Shown in pieces: positions 33,997-45,701 of a stretch of DNA of 64,000 nt. Under the pieces are notes generated by a model. It worked only from the letters and a program-made list of their open reading frames with translations, was not told where the DNA came from and did no database searches. Where the stretch lies: the NCBI GenBank assembly GCA_048320885.1, contig JBLWFJ010000001.1:5825697-5889696 (forward strand). The letters are read 5' to 3'. Within the stretch, counting starts at the first letter, position 1. The number at the start of each line of letters is the position of its first letter. Made by a program: the position numbers and the translations under genes. The DNA comes from Nannocystaceae bacterium ST9. GTDB lineage: Bacteria > Myxococcota_A > Polyangia > Nannocystales > Nannocystaceae.

Positions 33997-35094
33997 ATGG
34001 CTCGCCAGGACTACTACGCGATCCTGGGCGTCGGCCGCGACGCCGACGAGGCCGACATCAAGAAGGCCTATCGGCGCGTCGCGCTCGAGAGCCACCCCGA
34101 TCGCTTCCCCGACGACGAAGACGCCCACGAGCGGTTTCGCCAGGCGTCCGAAGCCTACGAGGTGCTCTCGGATCCCGGCAAGCGGGCCCGCTACGACGCG
34201 ACCCGGCTGATCCCCGAGAGCCTCGATCTCACTCGTCCGCCCGACGCCCAGACCGCCCGCGATCTGTTCGGCAACCTGTTCGGCGACGTGTTCGGCAGCC
34301 GTCGACGCGAGCGGCGACAGGGCCGGGACATTCGCTACACGCTCACCGTCGACCTCGCCGACGTCGTGCTCGGCTCGCAGCACACCATCCACTTCGAGGC
34401 CCGCGGCGCCTGCGAGACCTGCAAGGGCAAGGGCGCCGAGCCGGGTGGGCGCGAGCCGGTCGACTGCCCCAATTGCGAGGGCACCGGCGAGGTCAAGACC
34501 GGCGGGATCTTTAGTCGGCGCAGCCGCTGCGGTCGCTGCGACGGGCTCGGGCTGATCCAACGCGACCCCTGCAAGACCTGCCGCGGCCGCGGGGTGCTCA
34601 AGGCCGAGCGCAGCTTCGACGTTCGCCTGCCGCCGGGCACCGAGGCCGGGACCGAGAAGGTCCTGCGTGGCCAGGGCGAGCCGGGCCGCTTCGACGGTGA
34701 GCCAGGCAACCTGCGGATCACCGTGAACGTCCGCCCGCACCCCTGGCTGACCCGCGATCAGCTCAACTTGGTCGCGAGCGTGCCGATCAGCATCACCCGC
34801 GCGGCGCTGGGCGGAAAGGTCCCGGTCCCGACGATCGATGGTTGGGTCGACATGGAGGTCCCGGCCGGGGTCGCGTCGGGGGCCAAGCTTCGCTTGCGCG
34901 GCAAGGGTGTGCCCGACTCTCGAGGCAGCCGCGGCGACCAGATCGTCGAGCTGAGGATCGAGACCCCCAGCGCGCTCGAAGGCACGCGGACCCGCGAATT
35001 GCTGCTGGAGCTCGAGCGTACGAGCGAGCGCGAGCCGGTCTTGCCCAAGCGCCAGGCCGTCTTGGACGCCCAGGCGGCCGCCAAGAAGGCTTGA
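33997..35094 (+). CDS. dnaJ: Molecular chaperone DnaJ (type I: J domain, G/F region, CxxCxGxG zinc fingers, C-terminal domain)
   Basis: ATG 33997, 2 nt after the dnaK stop. DYYAILGV...HPD (HPD motif); four CxxCxG repeats ([32 protein letters not shown]). Confidence 0.9.
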
Positions 35095-35173
35095 TGGGGC
35101 TCAGATTCTTCGACGAGGGTGGCGCCGACGCGGTAGAGTGACCTTCGTCGCGACCGCCTCGAGCGAACGGTCC

Positions 35174-35848
35174 ATGGTCTACATCGACATCCAGCACCGC
35201 GAGGTCACGCTCAAGCTCGTCTACTACGGCCCGGCGCTCAGCGGGAAGACGACCAACCTCCAACAGCTGCACAAGCTGATGGCCGACCACACCGGGTCCG
35301 AGCTGATCACGCTCGACACTCGCGACGACCGCACGCTCTTCTTCGATCTGCTGCCGCTCAATTTCCAGACCGAGGGCGGGTTCACGATCCGGCTCGAGCT
35401 GTTCACGGTCCCCGGCCAGGTCATCCACAACACGACCCGCAAGATCGTGCTGCAAGGCGCCGACGGAGTCGCGTTCATCGCCGACTCGCGGGTCTCGCAG
35501 ACGCGCGGCAACAACGAGTCGTTCTCCAACCTCAAGCAGAACCTGCGCGAGAACGGGCTCGACTACGAGGACATCGCGCTGGTCATCCAGTTCAACAAGC
35601 GCGACCTCGAAGGCATCCGCAGCGAGGCCGAGGTCGACAAGATCGCCCGCAAGGGTCGCGAGCCGGTGTTCAAGGCGGTCGCGATCGAGGGCCAGGGCGT
35701 GGTCGAGACCTTCCGCGGGCTGGCGGCGCTCAGCTGGCGGCGACTCGAGGGCAAGTTCAATTTCGCCGAGCGCTTCGGGGTCCGCCACGAGGACTTCATG
35801 GCCCAGATCGACTCGCTGTTCGGGCCGAGTCGGGGAGGGGCGACATGA
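35174..35848 (+). CDS. MglA-family Ras-like small GTPase
   Basis: LKLVYYGPALSGKTTNLQ (P-loop), RTLFFDLLPL (switch), LFTVPGQV, LVIQFNKRDL (NKxD) track M. xanthus MglA along its length. An alternative upstream start lies at 35138. Its stop overlaps the next gene's start (ATGA at 35845). Confidence 0.8.
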   Translation: MVYIDIQHREVTLKLVYYGPALSGKTTNLQQLHKLMADHTGSELITLDTRDDRTLFFDLLPLNFQTEGGFTIRLELFTVPGQVIHNTTRKIVLQGADGVAFIADSRVSQTRGNNESFSNLKQNLRENGLDYEDIALVIQFNKRDLEGIRSEAEVDKIARKGREPVFKAVAIEGQGVVETFRGLAALSWRRLEGKFNFAERFGVRHEDFMAQIDSLFGPSRGGAT

Positions 35849-37119
35849 CGGCGCCGGCCGCCAACGCCAGCGCGCCCGATCGCCGGCCGCCGCTCGAGCG
35901 GCTGCTGCGGCGCGACGACTTCACCCGCACGCTCACGCCCTTCGTGCACGGCGTGTTCGGGGACATCGACGCGGTCGCGCTCTTCGATCACGGCGGCGTG
36001 GTGTTCTGTCATGTCGGCGACGAGGGCCCGATGGCCCACTGGGATCAGCTCCCGCCCGAGGCCCACGCGGTGTTCCGCGGCAGCGAGCGCGGGTTCGGGC
36101 TCGGCGATCACCAGTTCGCGGTCCGGGCCTGCTTCGCGGGCGCCGATCGAGTCGGCACGGCCGTGTTCTCGCTGCCCGCGGCCAGCCCCGACTGCCCGCG
36201 CCTGGCCGCGATCGCCGACGGCCTGGTCGGCGTGATCGGGGCGCTCTTGCAGGCCGGGTTCGCGACCTGGGTGACCTCGGAGATGCACCTCGCGGCCAGC
36301 GAGAGCAACTTCCGCGCGCTCCAGCAGCGCAACGCCGAGCTCGAGCGGGCGATCGCCCACCTGCGCGAGGTCGATCAGCTCAAGAGCAACTTCCTGGCCA
36401 CGGTCAGCCACGAGCTGCGCACGCCGTTGACCAGCATCATCGGCTTCTCCGAGATGCTCGCGCGCGGCATCGCCGGCCCGCTCAACGAAGAGCAGACCGA
36501 GTACGCCAACACCATCCTCGAGCGCGGCGAAGAGCTGCTCCGGCTGATCACCCAGATCCTCGAGATGTCGAAGATGGAGATGGGCACGATGCGGCTGAAC
36601 CTCGCGCCGGTCGCCCTGAGCGAGATCGTCGAGCGGGCGTTCAGCGCGGCCTCGATCCCGGCCGAGCGCGCGCACGTGTACCTCCGCCACGATCTCGAGC
36701 CCGAGCTCGCGCGGGTGCTCTGCGACGCCGACAAGATCCAGCAGGTCCTGGTCAACCTGATCTCCAACGCGATCAAGTTCAACCGCCCGCAGGGCCACGT
36801 GCTGATCCAGGCCGAGCGCGCGCCGATCCGCCGGCCCTTCGACGAGGACTTCTTCGGCGAGGAGACCTCCGACGCCCTGCGGATCTCGGTCACCGACACC
36901 GGGATCGGCATCCCCGAAGATCAGCTCGTGCGCATCTTCGACGCCTTCTATCAGGTCGACGCCAGCTCGACCCGCGAGCACGGCGGGGCCGGGCTCGGGC
37001 TCTCGATCGTCCGCAAGCTGATCGAGGCCCACGGCGGCGAAGTCTGGGCCGAGAGCATGGTCGGGGTCGGCACGACCTTCCACTTCACGCTCCCGGTCGC
37101 CGAGGCGATGGAAGAGTAG
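35845..37119 (+). CDS. Sensor histidine kinase with N-terminal Roadblock/LC7 (MglB-like)-type domain, HisKA and HATPase_c
   Basis: HisKA H-box FLATVSHELRTPLTSIIGFSEML. N, G1 (DTGIGI) and G2 (GGAGLGLSIV) boxes. N-terminal ~140 aa (...TLTPFVHGVFGDIDAVALFDHGGVVFCHVGDEG...AAIADGLVGVIGALL...) has the alternating pattern of Roadblock/LC7 domains. No TM segment. Confidence 0.7.
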   Translation: MTAPAANASAPDRRPPLERLLRRDDFTRTLTPFVHGVFGDIDAVALFDHGGVVFCHVGDEGPMAHWDQLPPEAHAVFRGSERGFGLGDHQFAVRACFAGADRVGTAVFSLPAASPDCPRLAAIADGLVGVIGALLQAGFATWVTSEMHLAASESNFRALQQRNAELERAIAHLREVDQLKSNFLATVSHELRTPLTSIIGFSEMLARGIAGPLNEEQTEYANTILERGEELLRLITQILEMSKMEMGTMRLNLAPVALSEIVERAFSAASIPAERAHVYLRHDLEPELARVLCDADKIQQVLVNLISNAIKFNRPQGHVLIQAERAPIRRPFDEDFFGEETSDALRISVTDTGIGIPEDQLVRIFDAFYQVDASSTREHGGAGLGLSIVRKLIEAHGGEVWAESMVGVGTTFHFTLPVAEAMEE

Positions 37120-37252
37120 ATCGTCCTCGAGATCCTCGCGGGATCTGCCGAGAATCGCTTCGATCGTGATCGATGTTCGCGGATCGACCCGCAACTTGGC
37201 CTTGGCGCGATCGATCGTTTGGGGCAAGCTCCGCGCGTCCGAGATCGATCGC

Positions 37253-37504
37253 ATGAACCCGCAAGAGCAACTGTCCGAGCTCGAGAAACTGGCTGGCGAA
37301 CTCGAGGTCGAGATCTGCTACGAACCGATGGCGGGGCTGGTCCAGGGCGTGGGCGGCTTGTGCCGGGTCAAGGGCCAGTACCGGATCATCGTCGACCGCA
37401 AGCTCAAGGCGCCCGAGCGCCTGCAGGTGGTCGCCGACGCCCTGCGCCGCTTCGATACCGAGAGCCACTTCGTCTCGCCGCAGGTCCGCAAGCTGCTCGC
37501 GTAG
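37253..37504 (+). CDS. Small hypothetical protein (83 aa from MNPQEQLSELEK; alternative start 37166)
   Basis: Open frame with plausible composition between the kinase gene and the next STPK. No domain recognised. Confidence 0.35.
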   Translation: MNPQEQLSELEKLAGELEVEICYEPMAGLVQGVGGLCRVKGQYRIIVDRKLKAPERLQVVADALRRFDTESHFVSPQVRKLLA

Positions 37505-37521
37505 CGCGAGCGCGTGCGAGC

Positions 37522-37833
37522 TCAGGCGCGCGCGAGCAGGCGCGCGAGGGTCGGATCGTCGGCGAGCAGCTCCCGCAACTGCGCCGTGAGTCGTGCGATC
37601 GATTCGGCGCTGGCCGTGGCCGGTAGCTGCTCGGCGACGACCTCGGCCAGCAACAATTCCTGGGCGGCGACCGAGTCGATGCGGCCGGCCGCGAGCGCCT
37701 CGGCGATCGCCGTGTCGCCGTGGATCGCCGCGCTCGGGCTCGCTGCGGCGCTGGCCGAAGCCGCGTCGACAGCCTCGGAGCCGGTCAGCGCGGCCGTCGG
37801 AAGGCTCGGATCGATGTCGTCGGTTCCGCTCAT
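37522..37833 (-). CDS. Small hypothetical Ala-rich protein (103 aa)
   Basis: ATG at 37833 (MSGTDDIDPSLPTAALTGSEAVDAASA...LLARA), internal to track ORF 37522..37986. Helical, low complexity. Convergent with the preceding gene. Confidence 0.35.
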   Translation of the reverse strand: MSGTDDIDPSLPTAALTGSEAVDAASASAAASPSAAIHGDTAIAEALAAGRIDSVAAQELLLAEVVAEQLPATASAESIARLTAQLRELLADDPTLARLLARA

Positions 37834-37947
37834 GGACCTGCACGCGAATCGCCACGAACCGGAGTTCGCGCCCAGCCGGTGGCCCCGCGAGCATAGCCCA
37901 CTGGGCAGGAGAGCAGGGTCGCTTCGACACACGCGATTTCGGCTTCG

Positions 37948-40900
37948 TTGGAACGTCGACCTTTGGTTGACTTTCGACGCTGCCACGGGTGTGATCGAGC
38001 ACCCCTCGCGCGCCGATTTGCGCGCCTTCCGCTGGAGCGCTCCTTGTTGGACCTTCCCAAGAAACTCGCCCAGTATCAGATCCTCGAACGCATCGCTCTA
38101 GGAGGGATGGCCGAGGTCTACAAGGCCGTCGCTCGTGGCGTCGAGGGGTTCGAGAAGGTCGTCGCGATCAAGCGAATCCTCCCGCACGTCGCCGAGGACG
38201 ACGAGTTCATCACGATGTTCAAGGACGAAGCGCGCATTGCGGCGCAGCTTCAGCACTCGAACATCGCCCAGATCTACGAGCTGCGATCGGAGGGCGAGGC
38301 CTTCTACATCGTGCTCGAGTACGTCGCCGGCAAGGACCTGCGCGCCATCTTCGAACACGCCCGCAACATCCGGCGGCCGATGCCGCTGGCCCAGGCCTGC
38401 TTCGTGATCATGGCGGTCTGCGAGGGCCTCGAGTACGCCCACAACAAGAAGGACCGGCACGGTCGCCCGCTCGGGTTGATCCACCGCGACGTCAGCCCGC
38501 CCAACGTGCTCGTCTCGTTCGAGGGCGAGGTCAAGCTGATCGACTTCGGCGTGGCCAAGGCGGCCGGGCGTGCGTCGCAGACCCAGGCCGGCATTCTCAA
38601 GGGCAAGTTCGGCTACATGTCGCCTGAGCAGGTCCGCGGCGAGACGATCGATCGTCGCAGCGACGTGTTCTCGCTCGGCGCGGTGCTCTGGGAGATCCTC
38701 TGCAACCAGCGGCTCTTTCAGGCCGAGACCGACTTCGCCACGCTCGAGAAGGTCCGCACGGTCAACATCGATCCGCCCAGTCGGATCAACCCGGCGGTGC
38801 CGAGCAAGCTCGAGCAGATCGTCATGCGATCGCTGGCGGCCGATCTCGATCACCGCTACCAGACCGCCGCCGAACTGCACGACGCGCTGCAGGCCTTCAT
38901 GTTCGAGGAGGGTCTGTTCTACAGCCGAAAGAACCTCGCCGAGTGGATGCAAGACCACTTCGCGAAGGACATCGAAGCGGAGAAGGAGAAGGCCCGGCAG
39001 CTCCCCCCGGCCCCTCCGCCTTCGTCGAAACCCAACCCGAAGAACACCATGATGAACCCGGGAAGCCGTCCGCCTCCGCCACCAGCCGGTGGCGCCAAGA
39101 AGCCGCCGCCGCCTCCGACCGCCGCGCCTCCGAAGCCGACGCCGCCCGCACCTTCGGGTGGACCGCCCCGCCAGTCTTCGGTGCCGACGGAGTCCCATCA
39201 GGCCTTGCCGCCGGACGACAAGCGAGGGCCGCCCAAGCCCGGTCGCGCACGCGCGAAGACCATGGTGATGACGAGTTCGAAGGCCGACATCCCCGGCGTC
39301 GGCAAGAAGCCGGCCCCCGGTGGACCGCGGCCCAAGCCGCCCGGCGCGGGCGGTGGCGGTGGTGGCAACTCGGAGTTCGACTGGGACGACGACGAGCTCG
39401 AGACTCGGCTCTTCGAGGGCCAAGAAGGGGACGCGCTCGCGGCCACGCCCGCGCCGGCTCCCTCGGCCGGAGCGCCTCGCCCGGCGCCGATCACCACGCC
39501 GCCGGCCTCGGCTCCCGCGGCCATGCCCGCAGGGCCGCCCGTCGGCGGCGGGCCGCGACCGGGTGGCTTGCCTGCGCCCGGTGGGCTGCCGGCACCCGGC
39601 GGCGCGCCGCGACCCGGCATGCCGATGCCCGGCGGCGCGGGTCCGACCGGCACCATGCCTCCCAACATGGTCAGCGCCGCGGCGGTCCAGGCCGCGATGC
39701 ATCAGCAGCATCAGCAGCCGATGCACCAGCAGCAGCCGATGCATCAGCAGCAGCCGATGCACCAGCAGCAGCCGATGCATCAGCAGCCGATGCATCAGCA
39801 GCAGCCGATGCACCAGCAGCAGCCGATGCACCAGCAGCAGCCGATGCATCAGCAGCAGCCGATGCACCAGCAACAGCCGATGCACCAACAGCCGATGCAT
39901 CAGCCGCCGATGCATCAGCAGCAGCCGATGCACGCGATGGGGCAGGGCATGCCGCAACAAGGCATGCATGCCCCGATGATGAATCAGGGCATGAACCAAG
40001 GCATGCACCAGGTCGCGTCCGCGACCTACGAGCCCGATCCGCCCAAGCGCGCGCCGATCGGGCTGATCCTCGGGCTCGTCGGTCTGCTGATCGCCGCGCT
40101 CGCGGTCGGCGTGTACGTCGTGTTCGTGATGCCGGGCGGCGACGACAAGGCCGCGTCGGCCGGTGACGAGGGTGGCGCGGAGGTGGCCAAGGCCGGCGAG
40201 ACCGGCGGCCTCACGCTCGAGCTCGTCCCGCCCGACGCGGTGGTCAAGCTCGACGGCAAGCTGATCGAAGGCAGCGGCTCGCCGCGAACGATCGCCGATC
40301 TCGCCGCGGGCAAGCACCAGCTCGAGATCAGCAAGGACGGCGCCTTCCTGGCGTTCAGCCAGGAGATCACGATCGCCGCGGGTCAGCCTCTGGCGCTCCC
40401 GGCCGTCAAGCTGCACGCCAAGGACGTCGCGCTGACGATCAAGGTCAGCCCCAAGCAAGCCGCGGTCGCGCTGATCGCCGGCACACCGGACAAGACCACG
40501 GCGATCGGGGCGGGCCTCGACTCGCACCTCGCCCAGGTCGCGCGCGAGGCCGGGGTCGCCTACTCGATCTCGGCCAGCGCCGAGGGCTTCGAGCCGCAGA
40601 CCCTGCCGATCACGTTCACGGGCGACGCCACCCAGGAGATCAGCGTCACGCTGGTCGCCAAGGCCGGTGGCACGGTCGCGGTCGGACCCGATCCGATCCC
40701 GACCAACCCGATCCCGACCAACCCGACCGAACCGATCAAGGAGCCCGAGGTCAAGAAGCCCAAGGACAAGAAGCCGTCCAACAAGCCGAAGAACTCCGAG
40801 CTCAAGATCGGCGTGGCCCCGGGCATGCCGCCGGCCGACGTCTACGTCGACGGTCGCAAGCAGGACAAGAAGACCCCCGTGTTCGTGAAGGTCACCGAGG

Positions 40901-41001
40901 GCTCGCACACGGTCAAGTGGAAGTGGGACGACGGCAAGACCGACACCCAGACGGTCAGCGTCGCCGCCAACGAGTCCAAGCTGCTCAAGGGCAGCAAGTA
41001 G
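37948..41001 (+). CDS. Ser/Thr protein kinase with Pro-rich linker, (QQQPMH)n repeat tract, TM helix and C-terminal PEGA domains
   Basis: Kinase subdomains GGMAEVYKA, VAIKRI, HRDVSPPNV, DFGVAKA, SPEQ. Long P-rich region. 13+ imperfect copies of QQQPMH. TM IGLILGLVGLLIAALAVGVYVVFV. Three PEGA-like beta-sandwich units (...GKHQLEISKDGAFLAFSQEITIAAGQP..., ...SASAEGFEPQTLPITFTGDATQEISVTLV..., ...GSHTVKWKWDDGKTDTQTVSVAANES...). The true start may be an in-frame TTG near 38044. Confidence 0.8.
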   Translation: MERRPLVDFRRCHGCDRAPLARRFARLPLERSLLDLPKKLAQYQILERIALGGMAEVYKAVARGVEGFEKVVAIKRILPHVAEDDEFITMFKDEARIAAQLQHSNIAQIYELRSEGEAFYIVLEYVAGKDLRAIFEHARNIRRPMPLAQACFVIMAVCEGLEYAHNKKDRHGRPLGLIHRDVSPPNVLVSFEGEVKLIDFGVAKAAGRASQTQAGILKGKFGYMSPEQVRGETIDRRSDVFSLGAVLWEILCNQRLFQAETDFATLEKVRTVNIDPPSRINPAVPSKLEQIVMRSLAADLDHRYQTAAELHDALQAFMFEEGLFYSRKNLAEWMQDHFAKDIEAEKEKARQLPPAPPPSSKPNPKNTMMNPGSRPPPPPAGGAKKPPPPPTAAPPKPTPPAPSGGPPRQSSVPTESHQALPPDDKRGPPKPGRARAKTMVMTSSKADIPGVGKKPAPGGPRPKPPGAGGGGGGNSEFDWDDDELETRLFEGQEGDALAATPAPAPSAGAPRPAPITTPPASAPAAMPAGPPVGGGPRPGGLPAPGGLPAPGGAPRPGMPMPGGAGPTGTMPPNMVSAAAVQAAMHQQHQQPMHQQQPMHQQQPMHQQQPMHQQPMHQQQPMHQQQPMHQQQPMHQQQPMHQQQPMHQQPMHQPPMHQQQPMHAMGQGMPQQGMHAPMMNQGMNQGMHQVASATYEPDPPKRAPIGLILGLVGLLIAALAVGVYVVFVMPGGDDKAASAGDEGGAEVAKAGETGGLTLELVPPDAVVKLDGKLIEGSGSPRTIADLAAGKHQLEISKDGAFLAFSQEITIAAGQPLALPAVKLHAKDVALTIKVSPKQAAVALIAGTPDKTTAIGAGLDSHLAQVAREAGVAYSISASAEGFEPQTLPITFTGDATQEISVTLVAKAGGTVAVGPDPIPTNPIPTNPTEPIKEPEVKKPKDKKPSNKPKNSELKIGVAPGMPPADVYVDGRKQDKKTPVFVKVTEGSHTVKWKWDDGKTDTQTVSVAANESKLLKGSK
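39697..39937. repeat. 18-bp tandem repeat CAGCAGCAGCCGATGCA(C/T), ~13 copies, coding (QQQPMH)n inside the kinase gene
   Basis: Seen directly at 39697-39937, with minor C/T and copy-length variants (QQPMH, QPPMH). Confidence 0.9.
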
Positions 41002-43405: not shown

Positions 43406-45565
43406 TCAGCCCGCGCGCGGGTGCGGGCCCGAGACGTCGGCGCCCGGGGTGATCGGCACGGGCGTGAAGTCGCGGACGTAGCCGGAGTCGGGCTGCAAGA
43501 GGTCGGTGAGCAGGGCCGAGAACAGCCGGCCGTCCATCGGCTTGCGGACCGAGCGGGTCGGGCCCGCGCTGATCAGCCGCTGGATGGCGGCCTTGGTCGG
43601 CTGGTTGGAGAGCAGGATGACCGGCATCTCCGGGAACAGCTCGCGGACGGTCCGGAACAGCCGGCTGGCGTCGACGGCCTCGATCTCGAGGTCGAGGATC
43701 AGCAGCTCGACCTTGTCGCCCATCTCGGTCAGCAGCGGCGTGGCTGCCTTGGCGTCGCTCGTGCAGATCGGCGAGCACTCGGTCGCCTCGAGCAGCTCCT
43801 CGAACTCGTCGAGCGCGTCTTGATCCTCGGTCAGCACGACCACGACCGGGCCCTTCGACTCGCCGCGCAGGACCGGCCAGGGCTTGTGGGCCTCCTTCTC
43901 CTCGGCGGGCGCGAGCGGCAGGTAGATCGTGAAGGTCGTGCCCTCGCCGAGCACGCTCTCGACGGTGATCCGCCCGTGGTGGCGAGTGACCGTGCCCATG
44001 ACCATCGCCAGGCCCAGGCCGCTGCCGGAGCCGACCGGCTTGGTCGTGAAGAAGGGATCGAAGATCTGGTCGATGTGCTCTTCGTCGATGCCGGTGCCGG
44101 TGTCGGCGACCGTGATCACGGCGCTGCGCTGGATGCCGTCGTCGTTCGAAGCGTCGGAGTCGTCCTCGTCGCCGCGGTGGGGCGGCTGGCTGCTGGTCGA
44201 GAGCCCGATGGTGATCTCGCCGCCCTCGGGCATCGCGTCGCTGGCGTTGTAGACCAGGTTGGTGACCGCCTGCTGGAAGAGCACGCGGTCGACGTCGACC
44301 GAGACGTTGCGGGCCAGCTCGACCTTGAGCCGGACGTTGCCCGGCAGGCTCTTGGACGTGACCGGCAGGATCTGGCTCTGCAGCAGCTGGCGGAGGTTGG
44401 AGCGGACTGGCTGGAAGGTGCCTTGCCGGGTGTAGGTCAGCAGCGCGCCGGTGATCTGTGCGGCCGCGGCCGCCGAGTCGAGGATCCGTTGACCGTAGCG
44501 GCGGCTCTGCTCGGTCGTCGCCGAGCCCTCGGCGATCAGCTCGGCGTGCCCGCGGATCGGCGTGAGGATGTTGTTGAGCTCGTGGGCCAAGCCCGAGGCC
44601 ATCGTGCCGACGGTCTTGAGCTTCTGGGCTTCGAAGAGCTGCTCGCGCGACTGCTCGAGCTCGCTGATCTTGCCTTGCAGCCGCTTTTGCAGCTCTTCGC
44701 GCTGACGCTCGAGCTGGGTGATGCTGGCCTTGACGCTGGCCTCGGCGCCGCGCTGGCGGACCTGCAAGGTCGCCCCGAGCCCGAGCGGGATCGCCATGAA
44801 GGTCATCAGCACCGGGAGGGCGAACTGCCCGTCGGTGCTCATCTGCGAGGCCGCGAGCACGATCTCGCCACCGAAGCCGAGCAGGGCCGCCAGCACGTAG
44901 ACGGCCAGCGCCAAGTTCCAGCGCGGGCGCAGCAGCATCCCGCTCCAGACCAGCACCAGCAGGATCGCCGAGAGCATCAGCGGGCCCGGGATCCTGGTCA
45001 CGTCGGGCAGCATGGTGTTGAGCGCCGAGATCGCGATCGCGGCGGTCCACAGACCGCCGAGCTTGCGCGAGCGCCAGGCGAACGCGGCCCACGACAATCC
45101 CGCGCAGAGGATCAGCGAGATCATCCCGGCCCCGAGCTCGCGAAAGTGGCCGGTCAGCAGCTCGGTCAGCGTGAACGCGGTCGCGCAGATCGCCGCGACC
45201 AAGAAGAGCAGCGAGTCGCCGCGCAGCAGCGCGGCCGCGTCGATCGGGGTCGCGGGCTTCTCCTCGACGATCTCGGCGCTGATCGAGTCGGCCGAGCGGC
45301 TGATCTTCGCGACCGTGCGGCTCTTCGACGCGCCCGCGCGCGAGCCCGAGATCCCCGCTCGCCCGCCGCTCAAGCTCGAGTCCTCGGCCGAGGCGTCGCT
45401 CTCGATCGCGCTCGCGTGCGAGCGACTCCCGGCTCGGTTCGCCGCGTTGCGGATCACACTCGCGCTCGCGCGCTCGTGCACGGTGCTCTTGCTGGCCCCG
45501 CTCGCTCCGGGTCCATCCTTGAGCGGGACCTCGCTTCGGGTTGCCGTCGACTTCCTCTCGACCAT
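43406..45565 (-). CDS. Hybrid sensor histidine kinase / response regulator with polytopic membrane sensor region
   Basis: LKTVGTMASGLAHELNNILTPIRGHAELI (H-box), HATPase_c (DTGTGIDEEHIDQIFDPFFTTKPVGSGSGLGLAMV), C-terminal receiver (VVVVLTEDQDALDEFEELLEATECSPICTSDAKAATPLLTEMGDKVELLILDLEI...). The first ~100 aa are S/A/R-rich, so the true start may be downstream. Confidence 0.75.
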   Translation of the reverse strand: MVERKSTATRSEVPLKDGPGASGASKSTVHERASASVIRNAANRAGSRSHASAIESDASAEDSSLSGGRAGISGSRAGASKSRTVAKISRSADSISAEIVEEKPATPIDAAALLRGDSLLFLVAAICATAFTLTELLTGHFRELGAGMISLILCAGLSWAAFAWRSRKLGGLWTAAIAISALNTMLPDVTRIPGPLMLSAILLVLVWSGMLLRPRWNLALAVYVLAALLGFGGEIVLAASQMSTDGQFALPVLMTFMAIPLGLGATLQVRQRGAEASVKASITQLERQREELQKRLQGKISELEQSREQLFEAQKLKTVGTMASGLAHELNNILTPIRGHAELIAEGSATTEQSRRYGQRILDSAAAAAQITGALLTYTRQGTFQPVRSNLRQLLQSQILPVTSKSLPGNVRLKVELARNVSVDVDRVLFQQAVTNLVYNASDAMPEGGEITIGLSTSSQPPHRGDEDDSDASNDDGIQRSAVITVADTGTGIDEEHIDQIFDPFFTTKPVGSGSGLGLAMVMGTVTRHHGRITVESVLGEGTTFTIYLPLAPAEEKEAHKPWPVLRGESKGPVVVVLTEDQDALDEFEELLEATECSPICTSDAKAATPLLTEMGDKVELLILDLEIEAVDASRLFRTVRELFPEMPVILLSNQPTKAAIQRLISAGPTRSVRKPMDGRLFSALLTDLLQPDSGYVRDFTPVPITPGADVSGPHPRAG

Positions 45566-45701
45566 CGCGGGCAGTCTATCAGCCCGGACTCGCCGCGCGG
45601 CGATTCGCTATGGCCATTCTGCTCGCTGAAATCGCGTGATCCGAACCGAAACATCTTTGTCCGAATTCGCACCGATCACGATCTTTCGGCCAGTGGTGGA
45701 T

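Follow-up and report, generated by a model that had tools for sequence, protein, structure and literature searches.

A small GTPase of the MglA family and a soluble histidine kinase are encoded by overlapping genes that are conserved as a pair within a single marine myxobacterial family, the Nannocystaceae. We analyzed the pair in a 64,000-nucleotide stretch of the genome of Nannocystaceae bacterium ST9 (the window). Our favored reading, to which we assign a probability of about one-half, is that the two proteins form a dedicated Nannocystaceae module in which the state of an MglA paralog is coupled to a soluble kinase with a Roadblock-like input domain. The pair probably links a GTP switch directly to two-component signaling, and the module would comprise two genes, possibly three or four.

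The GTPase gene spans 35174 to 35848 on the forward strand (ATG at 35174, TGA at 35846–35848) and encodes 224 aa. Members of the MglA family are single-domain GTPases, 150 to 240 aa long, that carry a canonical P-loop (G1) and an NKxD motif (G4); the hallmarks of Group 1 are an arginine beside the G2 threonine, NKRD, FFD58, and a G3 motif, TVPGQ, that replaces the DxxGQ of Ras proteins (Wuichet & Sogaard-Andersen 2014, PMC4316618). In the protein encoded here, the P-loop GPALSGKT lies at residues 19 to 26 and NKRD at residues 141 to 144, the beta-screw/Walker B segment reads FFD58LL, and G3 is T78-V-P-G-Q82 (TVPGQ82). Within D52-R53-T54, the intrinsic arginine finger R53, numbered identically to R53 of Myxococcus xanthus MglA, stands beside the G2 threonine T54. 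An alignment of 17 orthologs shows G1, R53/T54, FFD58, TVPGQ, and NKRD to be invariant. By these motifs, the GTPase belongs to Group 1 of the MglA family, with every hallmark present. Searches of PDB sequences with phmmer matched residues 2 to 193 to MglA of Thermus thermophilus (3t12_A, E 8e-51) and of M. xanthus (6h17_A, E 1.2e-48); the best match outside MglA, Rab27B, reached merely 0.006. Identity to M. xanthus MglA is 46% by tblastn, and UniRef names the Enhygromyxa salina ortholog MglA. The initial annotation had proposed that the GTPase follows M. xanthus MglA along its length, citing the strings LKLVYYGPALSGKTTNLQ, RTLFFDLLP, TVPGQV, and NKRDL. All four are present, and the nearly full-length alignment bears the proposal out.

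Alignment with the M. xanthus and T. thermophilus proteins stops near residue 190, and the remainder (residues 190–224; 35741–35845, forward strand) is a family-specific tail that canonical MglA lacks. Its consensus, KLExKYxLxxRFGVxHxxFMxxIxxLF, is conserved in 133 homologs. As a separate matter, we asked whether the tail might duplicate the MglB Ct-helix in cis (IDSLF versus IDNLF) and rejected the idea, since shuffled MglB C termini scored as well against the tail profile in 651 of 2000 trials.

The stop codon of the GTPase gene overlaps the start of the kinase gene in an ATGA at 35845 to 35848 on the forward strand, with the kinase ATG at 35845, as had been noticed at the outset. This overlap is kept at all 17 Nannocystaceae junctions that could be read: it measures 4 nt at 15 of them, as ATGA, GTGA, or TTGA, and 10 nt at the other two (loci L017 and L018). 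Gene calls place the same overlap at loci L021 to L024. It persists down to 53% identity of the kinase and 65% identity of the GTPase, while flanking intergenic gaps range from 9 to 1087 bp, the gap between dnaJ and the GTPase gene being as little as 9 bp in some loci. Such an arrangement of reading frames implies co-transcription and makes translational coupling of the GTPase and the kinase probable. The pair was found at 18 loci from GTDB species and at six metagenome loci, and the relatives that carry it are all Nannocystaceae or Myxococcota. Every locus found through the N-terminal domain of the kinase and with upstream sequence contains the GTPase, and every locus found through the GTPase contains the kinase. 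This pairing is far beyond chance.

Gene order in the related Nannocystaceae loci is constant, dnaK-dnaJ-GTPase-histidine kinase-orf83-Ser/Thr kinase, and the whole block from hrcA through the Ser/Thr kinase is syntenic. Lying behind hrcA-grpE-dnaK-dnaJ, the module may be expressed with the heat-shock operon. No CIRCE element was matched in the window with up to three mismatches allowed, and a promoter and terminator scan of 34900 to 38100, which is uninformative at 70% GC, returned nothing. Always directly downstream of the kinase is orf83 (37253–37504, forward strand), which encodes 83 aa of unassigned family with no match in Pfam, NCBIfam, or PDB; synteny alone makes it a candidate for a third component. 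The next conserved neighbor, seen at every locus whose sequence reaches that far, is a Ser/Thr protein kinase (37948–41001, forward strand; start codon uncertain) with Pfam matches to Pkinase (2.9e-39) and PEGA (4.7e-11), in which a Pro/Gln-rich linker and a predicted membrane segment accompany the PEGA domain. Synteny makes it, too, a candidate member of the module. A stand-alone MglB, a GEF, and a response regulator are absent from the vicinity: tblastn with M. xanthus MglB, run on the window and on 22 loci, found no stand-alone MglB, and none of the neighboring proteins scanned or listed matched the Pfam model Robl_LC7. An mglB gene within four genes of mglA is typical and not required, SofG and the Bdellovibrio MglA being orphans (Wuichet & Sogaard-Andersen 2014); the supplements of that survey contain no Plesiocystis. 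The initial annotation had called for a search for the cognate response regulator, which came up empty, there being no stand-alone receiver among the annotated neighbors. The closest receiver domain is part of a hybrid kinase (43406–45607, reverse strand) that is not syntenic in other loci.

The kinase gene (35845–37119, forward strand) encodes a soluble class I histidine kinase of 424 aa that consists of the N-terminal domain (N-domain), a long helix, HisKA, and HATPase_c, and that has no receiver domain. The HisKA dimerization and phosphoacceptor domain (residues 180–246; 36382–36582) matches PF00512 with E 5.6e-22 and contains His189. HATPase_c, the catalytic domain (residues 294–419; 36724–37101), matches PF02518 with E 2.7e-32 and carries a conserved acidic insertion, RRPFDEDFFGEE, between its N and G1 boxes. 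The H box SH189ELRTPL, N box NLISNAIKF, G1 box DTGIGI, F box FDAFYQ, and G2 box GGAGLGLSIV are conserved in the 16 full-length orthologs of a 17-sequence alignment, the kinase of locus L005 being cut by a contig end. Its motifs thus mark the protein as a competent HisKA (class I) histidine kinase. The N-domain is joined to the HisKA dimerization helix by a continuous helix (residues 117–179; 36193–36381) with the near-invariant motif LQAGFATWVTSEMHLAASE; in an AlphaFold2 (AF2) model, the helix spans residues 117 to 164.

Residues 1 to 170 of the kinase match nothing in Pfam or NCBIfam, and phmmer likewise found no PDB match for the N-domain (residues ~17–136; 35893–36252, forward strand). The domain was examined by modeling and with a profile of 17 members of the family. 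Two AF2 models, with pLDDT values of 85.8 and 89.3 and a pTM of 0.86, predict a five-stranded alpha/beta sandwich most like Roadblock/LC7, arranged as alpha1 (residues 23–34), beta1 (43–48), beta2 (52–57), alpha2 (62–65 and 71–78), beta3 (83–86), beta4 (89–98), beta5 (101–111), and alpha3 (117 onward). As far as modeling goes, the fold class, an alpha/beta sandwich, is established. Both the order of the elements and the size agree with a Roadblock sandwich, in which alpha3 is optional and the length is ~100 to 120 residues. From alpha1 to beta5, the core is ~95 residues long and has five strands, beta2 being separated from beta3 by only 25 residues; because of this length, strand number, and short beta2-beta3 span, it is Roadblock-sized and not GAF-sized. 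The features that define a GAF domain (~150 residues, a six-stranded sheet, a ligand pocket, and a Pfam match) were not found in it. Family-invariant positions include F47, G51, W66, L69, A73, F84, A98, G99, and R102.

Assignment of this fold to a homologous family is less direct. The best PDB match of the 17-sequence profile is LAMTOR2, aligned end to end at a marginal E of 0.035, and neither GAF nor PAS domains appear in the match list. With E-values as high as 10 admitted, no match to the Pfam model Robl_LC7 (PF03259) was obtained for any of the 17 members. Comparison of the profile with M. xanthus MglB by hhalign gave no signal (probability 0.4%), a weak test in that a single sequence, 100% identical to 6h5b_B, was set against a shallow profile. 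Structure comparison with Foldseek divides according to the measure used. Ranked by E-value, the GAF domains of CodY and DhaR come first (5e-4 with the long model, 2.3e-3 with the trimmed model); ranked by TM-score and rmsd, a Roadblock domain, 8yl2_A, is best (TMq 0.68, 3.6 Å), against TMq 0.56 and 4.6 Å for the CodY GAF domain and 0.45 to 0.58 and 4.5 to 6 Å for GAF alignments overall. These models suggest that Roadblock is the best-supported, though not a proven, reading of the N-domain, and we infer homology to Roadblock as opposed to GAF. The initial annotation had arrived at Roadblock from an alternating hydrophobic pattern, which is not diagnostic alone; the fold needed modeling as a test. 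The assignment itself stands in part: the fold order, the LAMTOR2 match, and the best TM-score uphold it, and the silence of Robl_LC7 and the Foldseek E-values go against it. The structure prediction against Roadblock and GAF that had been recommended as a check is divided in the same way, with TM-score and rmsd favoring Roadblock and the E-values weakly favoring the CodY GAF domain.

Two features bear on how such a domain would meet a GTPase. Arg102 is invariant and opens beta5 immediately after the beta4-beta5 turn (AGADR102V). In MglB, Arg98 (VGSR98V) contacts switch I of MglA and contributes to GAP activity (PMC11016934), and Arg102 matches it topologically, an equivalence by secondary-structure position and not by superposition. 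MglB Asn37, likewise a switch I contact, lies in the beta1-beta2 turn and has no conserved counterpart: G, A, E, D, and H all occur at the N-domain position. The alpha2 helix, which in MglB holds residues that contact MglA, is short and broken by prolines (WDQLPPEA) in the N-domain. With respect to distribution, a profile search of 1.84 billion representative proteins returned true matches only from this kinase family, so that the N-domain is confined to it and has therefore co-evolved only with the GTPase partner. Two full-length members that were checked, P0010 and P0011, combine the N-domain with HisKA and HATPase_c, and word-index homolog searches with the N-domain retrieved merely 6 and 3 proteins. 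The other matches of the exhaustive search were proteins of 800 to 1480 aa with several matching stretches each; three were scanned, proved to consist of WD40 or FG-GAP propeller repeats, and were set aside as noise.

Two alternatives concern the N-domain itself. It might be a divergent GAF- or PAS-like sensor of small molecules. The kinase would then respond to a metabolite, and its connection with the GTPase would be of another sort: the GTPase might, for instance, bind the DHp/CA core, lie downstream as a target, or act in the same pathway. The Foldseek E-values of the CodY GAF domain speak for a sensor of this kind; the Pfam GAF and PAS models, however, match 0 of the 17 members, the profile search leads to LAMTOR2, the small core leaves no space for the usual GAF pocket elements, GAF superpositions are worse than the Roadblock one, and the N-domain is found only beside this GTPase. 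We regard this alternative as unlikely, though as the most probable of the rivals. A different objection is that residues 120 to 143 form a transmembrane helix, which would make the N-domain extracytoplasmic and prevent it from ever meeting the cytoplasmic GTPase. The sole hydrophobic stretch of the kinase, residues 120 to 138, has a 19-residue Kyte-Doolittle mean of 1.74, just over the usual threshold of 1.6. Against this, no signal peptide or first transmembrane segment was found, the kinase N terminus is highly charged (APDRRPPLERLLRRDD), and within the segment an acidic residue is conserved and a Gln is invariant. The AF2 models show residues 120 to 138 as an amphipathic helix lying against the sheet at pLDDT >90 and continuing as a soluble helix into HisKA. 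An extracytoplasmic N-domain is thus scarcely credible, and the original description of a kinase without a membrane sensor holds.

On the Roadblock reading, a mechanism can be outlined. The GTPase and the soluble kinase would be made together, the sole input domain of the kinase being Roadblock/LC7-like. HisKA kinases are dimers, and because the kinase would dimerize through its HisKA helices, two N-domains could be held side by side like the MglB dimer. Domains of the MglB type pair as homodimers by way of alpha2 and the beta3 edge strand, and the dimer engages a single GTPase asymmetrically. In its GTP form, the GTPase would present an MglA-type switch and beta-screw surface and dock on the N-domain dimer; the continuous LQAGFATWVTSEMH helix would then relay the signal to the DHp/CA core, altering autophosphorylation of His189. 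Docking might also bring Arg53 and Gln82 of the GTPase itself into position, in the manner of MglB; GTP hydrolysis would then end the signal, and the output would pass to an unlinked response regulator. In short, the kinase may read the GTP form of the MglA paralog through a built-in Roadblock dimer, convert it to His-Asp phosphotransfer, and time the signal as a GAP. We hold this full scheme only tentatively; binding between GTPase and kinase, GAP activity, the direction of the signal, and the output are the parts that we infer.

The same complex could also run in the opposite direction, with the kinase as a regulated GAP or scaffold and the GTPase as the output, acting on polarity, motility, or further effectors. 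Engagement of the GTPase by the Roadblock-like dimer would then vary with the ATP or phosphorylation state of the core. The conservon model, which puts the kinase upstream (CvnA to CvnB to CvnD; PMC13343842), argues for such a flow. The conserved extra tail of the GTPase could bind effectors, and no cognate response regulator is encoded nearby. On the last point, however, orphan kinases are common in myxobacteria. The kinase, moreover, has no other sensory domain through which an upstream signal could enter, and the strict conservation of the phosphotransfer motifs, including His189, and of the HisKA fold argues for a real phosphotransfer partner. Reversed flow therefore appears improbable. 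More improbable still is that the adjacency is mere operon bookkeeping, in which an ordinary MglA- or SofG-like GTPase works with a stand-alone MglB encoded elsewhere and the kinase is an unrelated orphan behind dnaKJ. Synteny within a single family can be inherited without a functional link, the entire hrcA-to-Ser/Thr kinase block is syntenic here, and the UniRef name of the E. salina ortholog would fit an ordinary MglA. The 46% identity to M. xanthus MglA and the 30-aa tail missing from canonical MglA nevertheless set the GTPase apart; the overlap has been kept at 17 of 17 junctions despite the divergence of both proteins and the variable gaps around them, and the N-domain exists nowhere else among the representatives searched.

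If the tentative scheme of a kinase that reads the GTPase through its own Roadblock-like dimer is true, it would be the first bacterial Ras-superfamily switch wired directly into a two-component kinase in one complex. Bacterial Ras-like GTPases are known chiefly from the MglA polarity switch, which moves proteins instead of changing gene expression, and from the actinobacterial conservon, in which the way the kinase communicates with the Roadblock protein and the GTPase is still unclear. A Roadblock-like domain fused to a soluble, sensor-less kinase and always translated with a Group 1 MglA paralog would be the simplest available system in which to study the coupling of GTPase state to two-component signaling: only two soluble proteins are needed, and the residues to mutate (R53, Q82, H189, and R102) are clear. 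It would also add a new domain architecture to the old idea that Roadblock/LC7 domains regulate NTPases in general. Should the N-domain be a GAF-like ligand sensor, the finding would shrink to a lineage-specific orphan kinase beside an MglA paralog, an outcome still of some interest for research on myxobacterial motility. A literature search returned nothing specific on a Roadblock-kinase fusion or on a Nannocystaceae MglA paralog.

The Roadblock fold is used by MglB, CvnB/MfpD, and Ragulator to bind and regulate small GTPases, and the Nannocystaceae pair differs from each of these systems. In the M. xanthus module, mglB precedes mglA, whereas the GTPase gene comes first here. In the MglA/MglB module of M. 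xanthus and T. thermophilus (PDB 3T12, 6IZW), MglB is a free 16-kDa protein; the Roadblock-like domain here is the N terminus of a kinase, has no detectable sequence similarity to MglB, and is paired with a GTPase that is longer than MglA by the 30-aa tail. The Ct-helix of MglB has GEF activity (PMC11016934), whereas the C-terminal helix of the N-domain is not free to act in that way because it runs into HisKA. No RomR or RomX context was seen at the locus. Ragulator/Rag and the Asgard Rag-like GTPases (LAMTOR2, the C-terminal Roadblock domains of RagA/C) are eukaryotic and archaeal scaffolds without a kinase fusion, and they resemble the N-domain in fold but not as systems. Cytoplasmic GAF- and PAS-histidine kinases share the layout of a small alpha/beta sensor, a continuous helix, HisKA, and HATPase_c; unlike their sensors, the N-domain is smaller, shows no signature of GAF or PAS in its sequence, and goes strictly with a GTPase gene.

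Among known systems, the actinobacterial conservon, or actinobacterial G protein system (AGPS), comes closest, linking a Roadblock GAP and a small GTPase to a histidine kinase (PMC13343842). Its parts are the CvnA kinase, the CvnB/MfpD Roadblock GAP, the CvnC/MfpC GEF, and the CvnD/MfpB GTPase. The defining set of a conservon, four genes cvnA to cvnD with DUF742 and a Group 2 GTPase in Actinomycetota, was not found here. Conservons are confined to Actinomycetota, whereas the host here is a myxobacterium. CvnA usually sits in the membrane and carries an LPxR motif at its C terminus, whereas the Nannocystaceae kinase is soluble and ends in ...FTLPVAEAMEE. The conservon GTPase belongs to Group 2, with a GTPGQ G3 and no intrinsic arginine finger, in contrast to the Group 1 GTPase described here, and its DUF742 GEF, CvnC, has no DUF742 counterpart in the Nannocystaceae locus, orf83 being without a Pfam match. 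In conservons, kinase and Roadblock are separate proteins; here, they would be fused, and the pair, if our reading is correct, would be a minimal fused counterpart of the poorly understood link between CvnA and CvnB.

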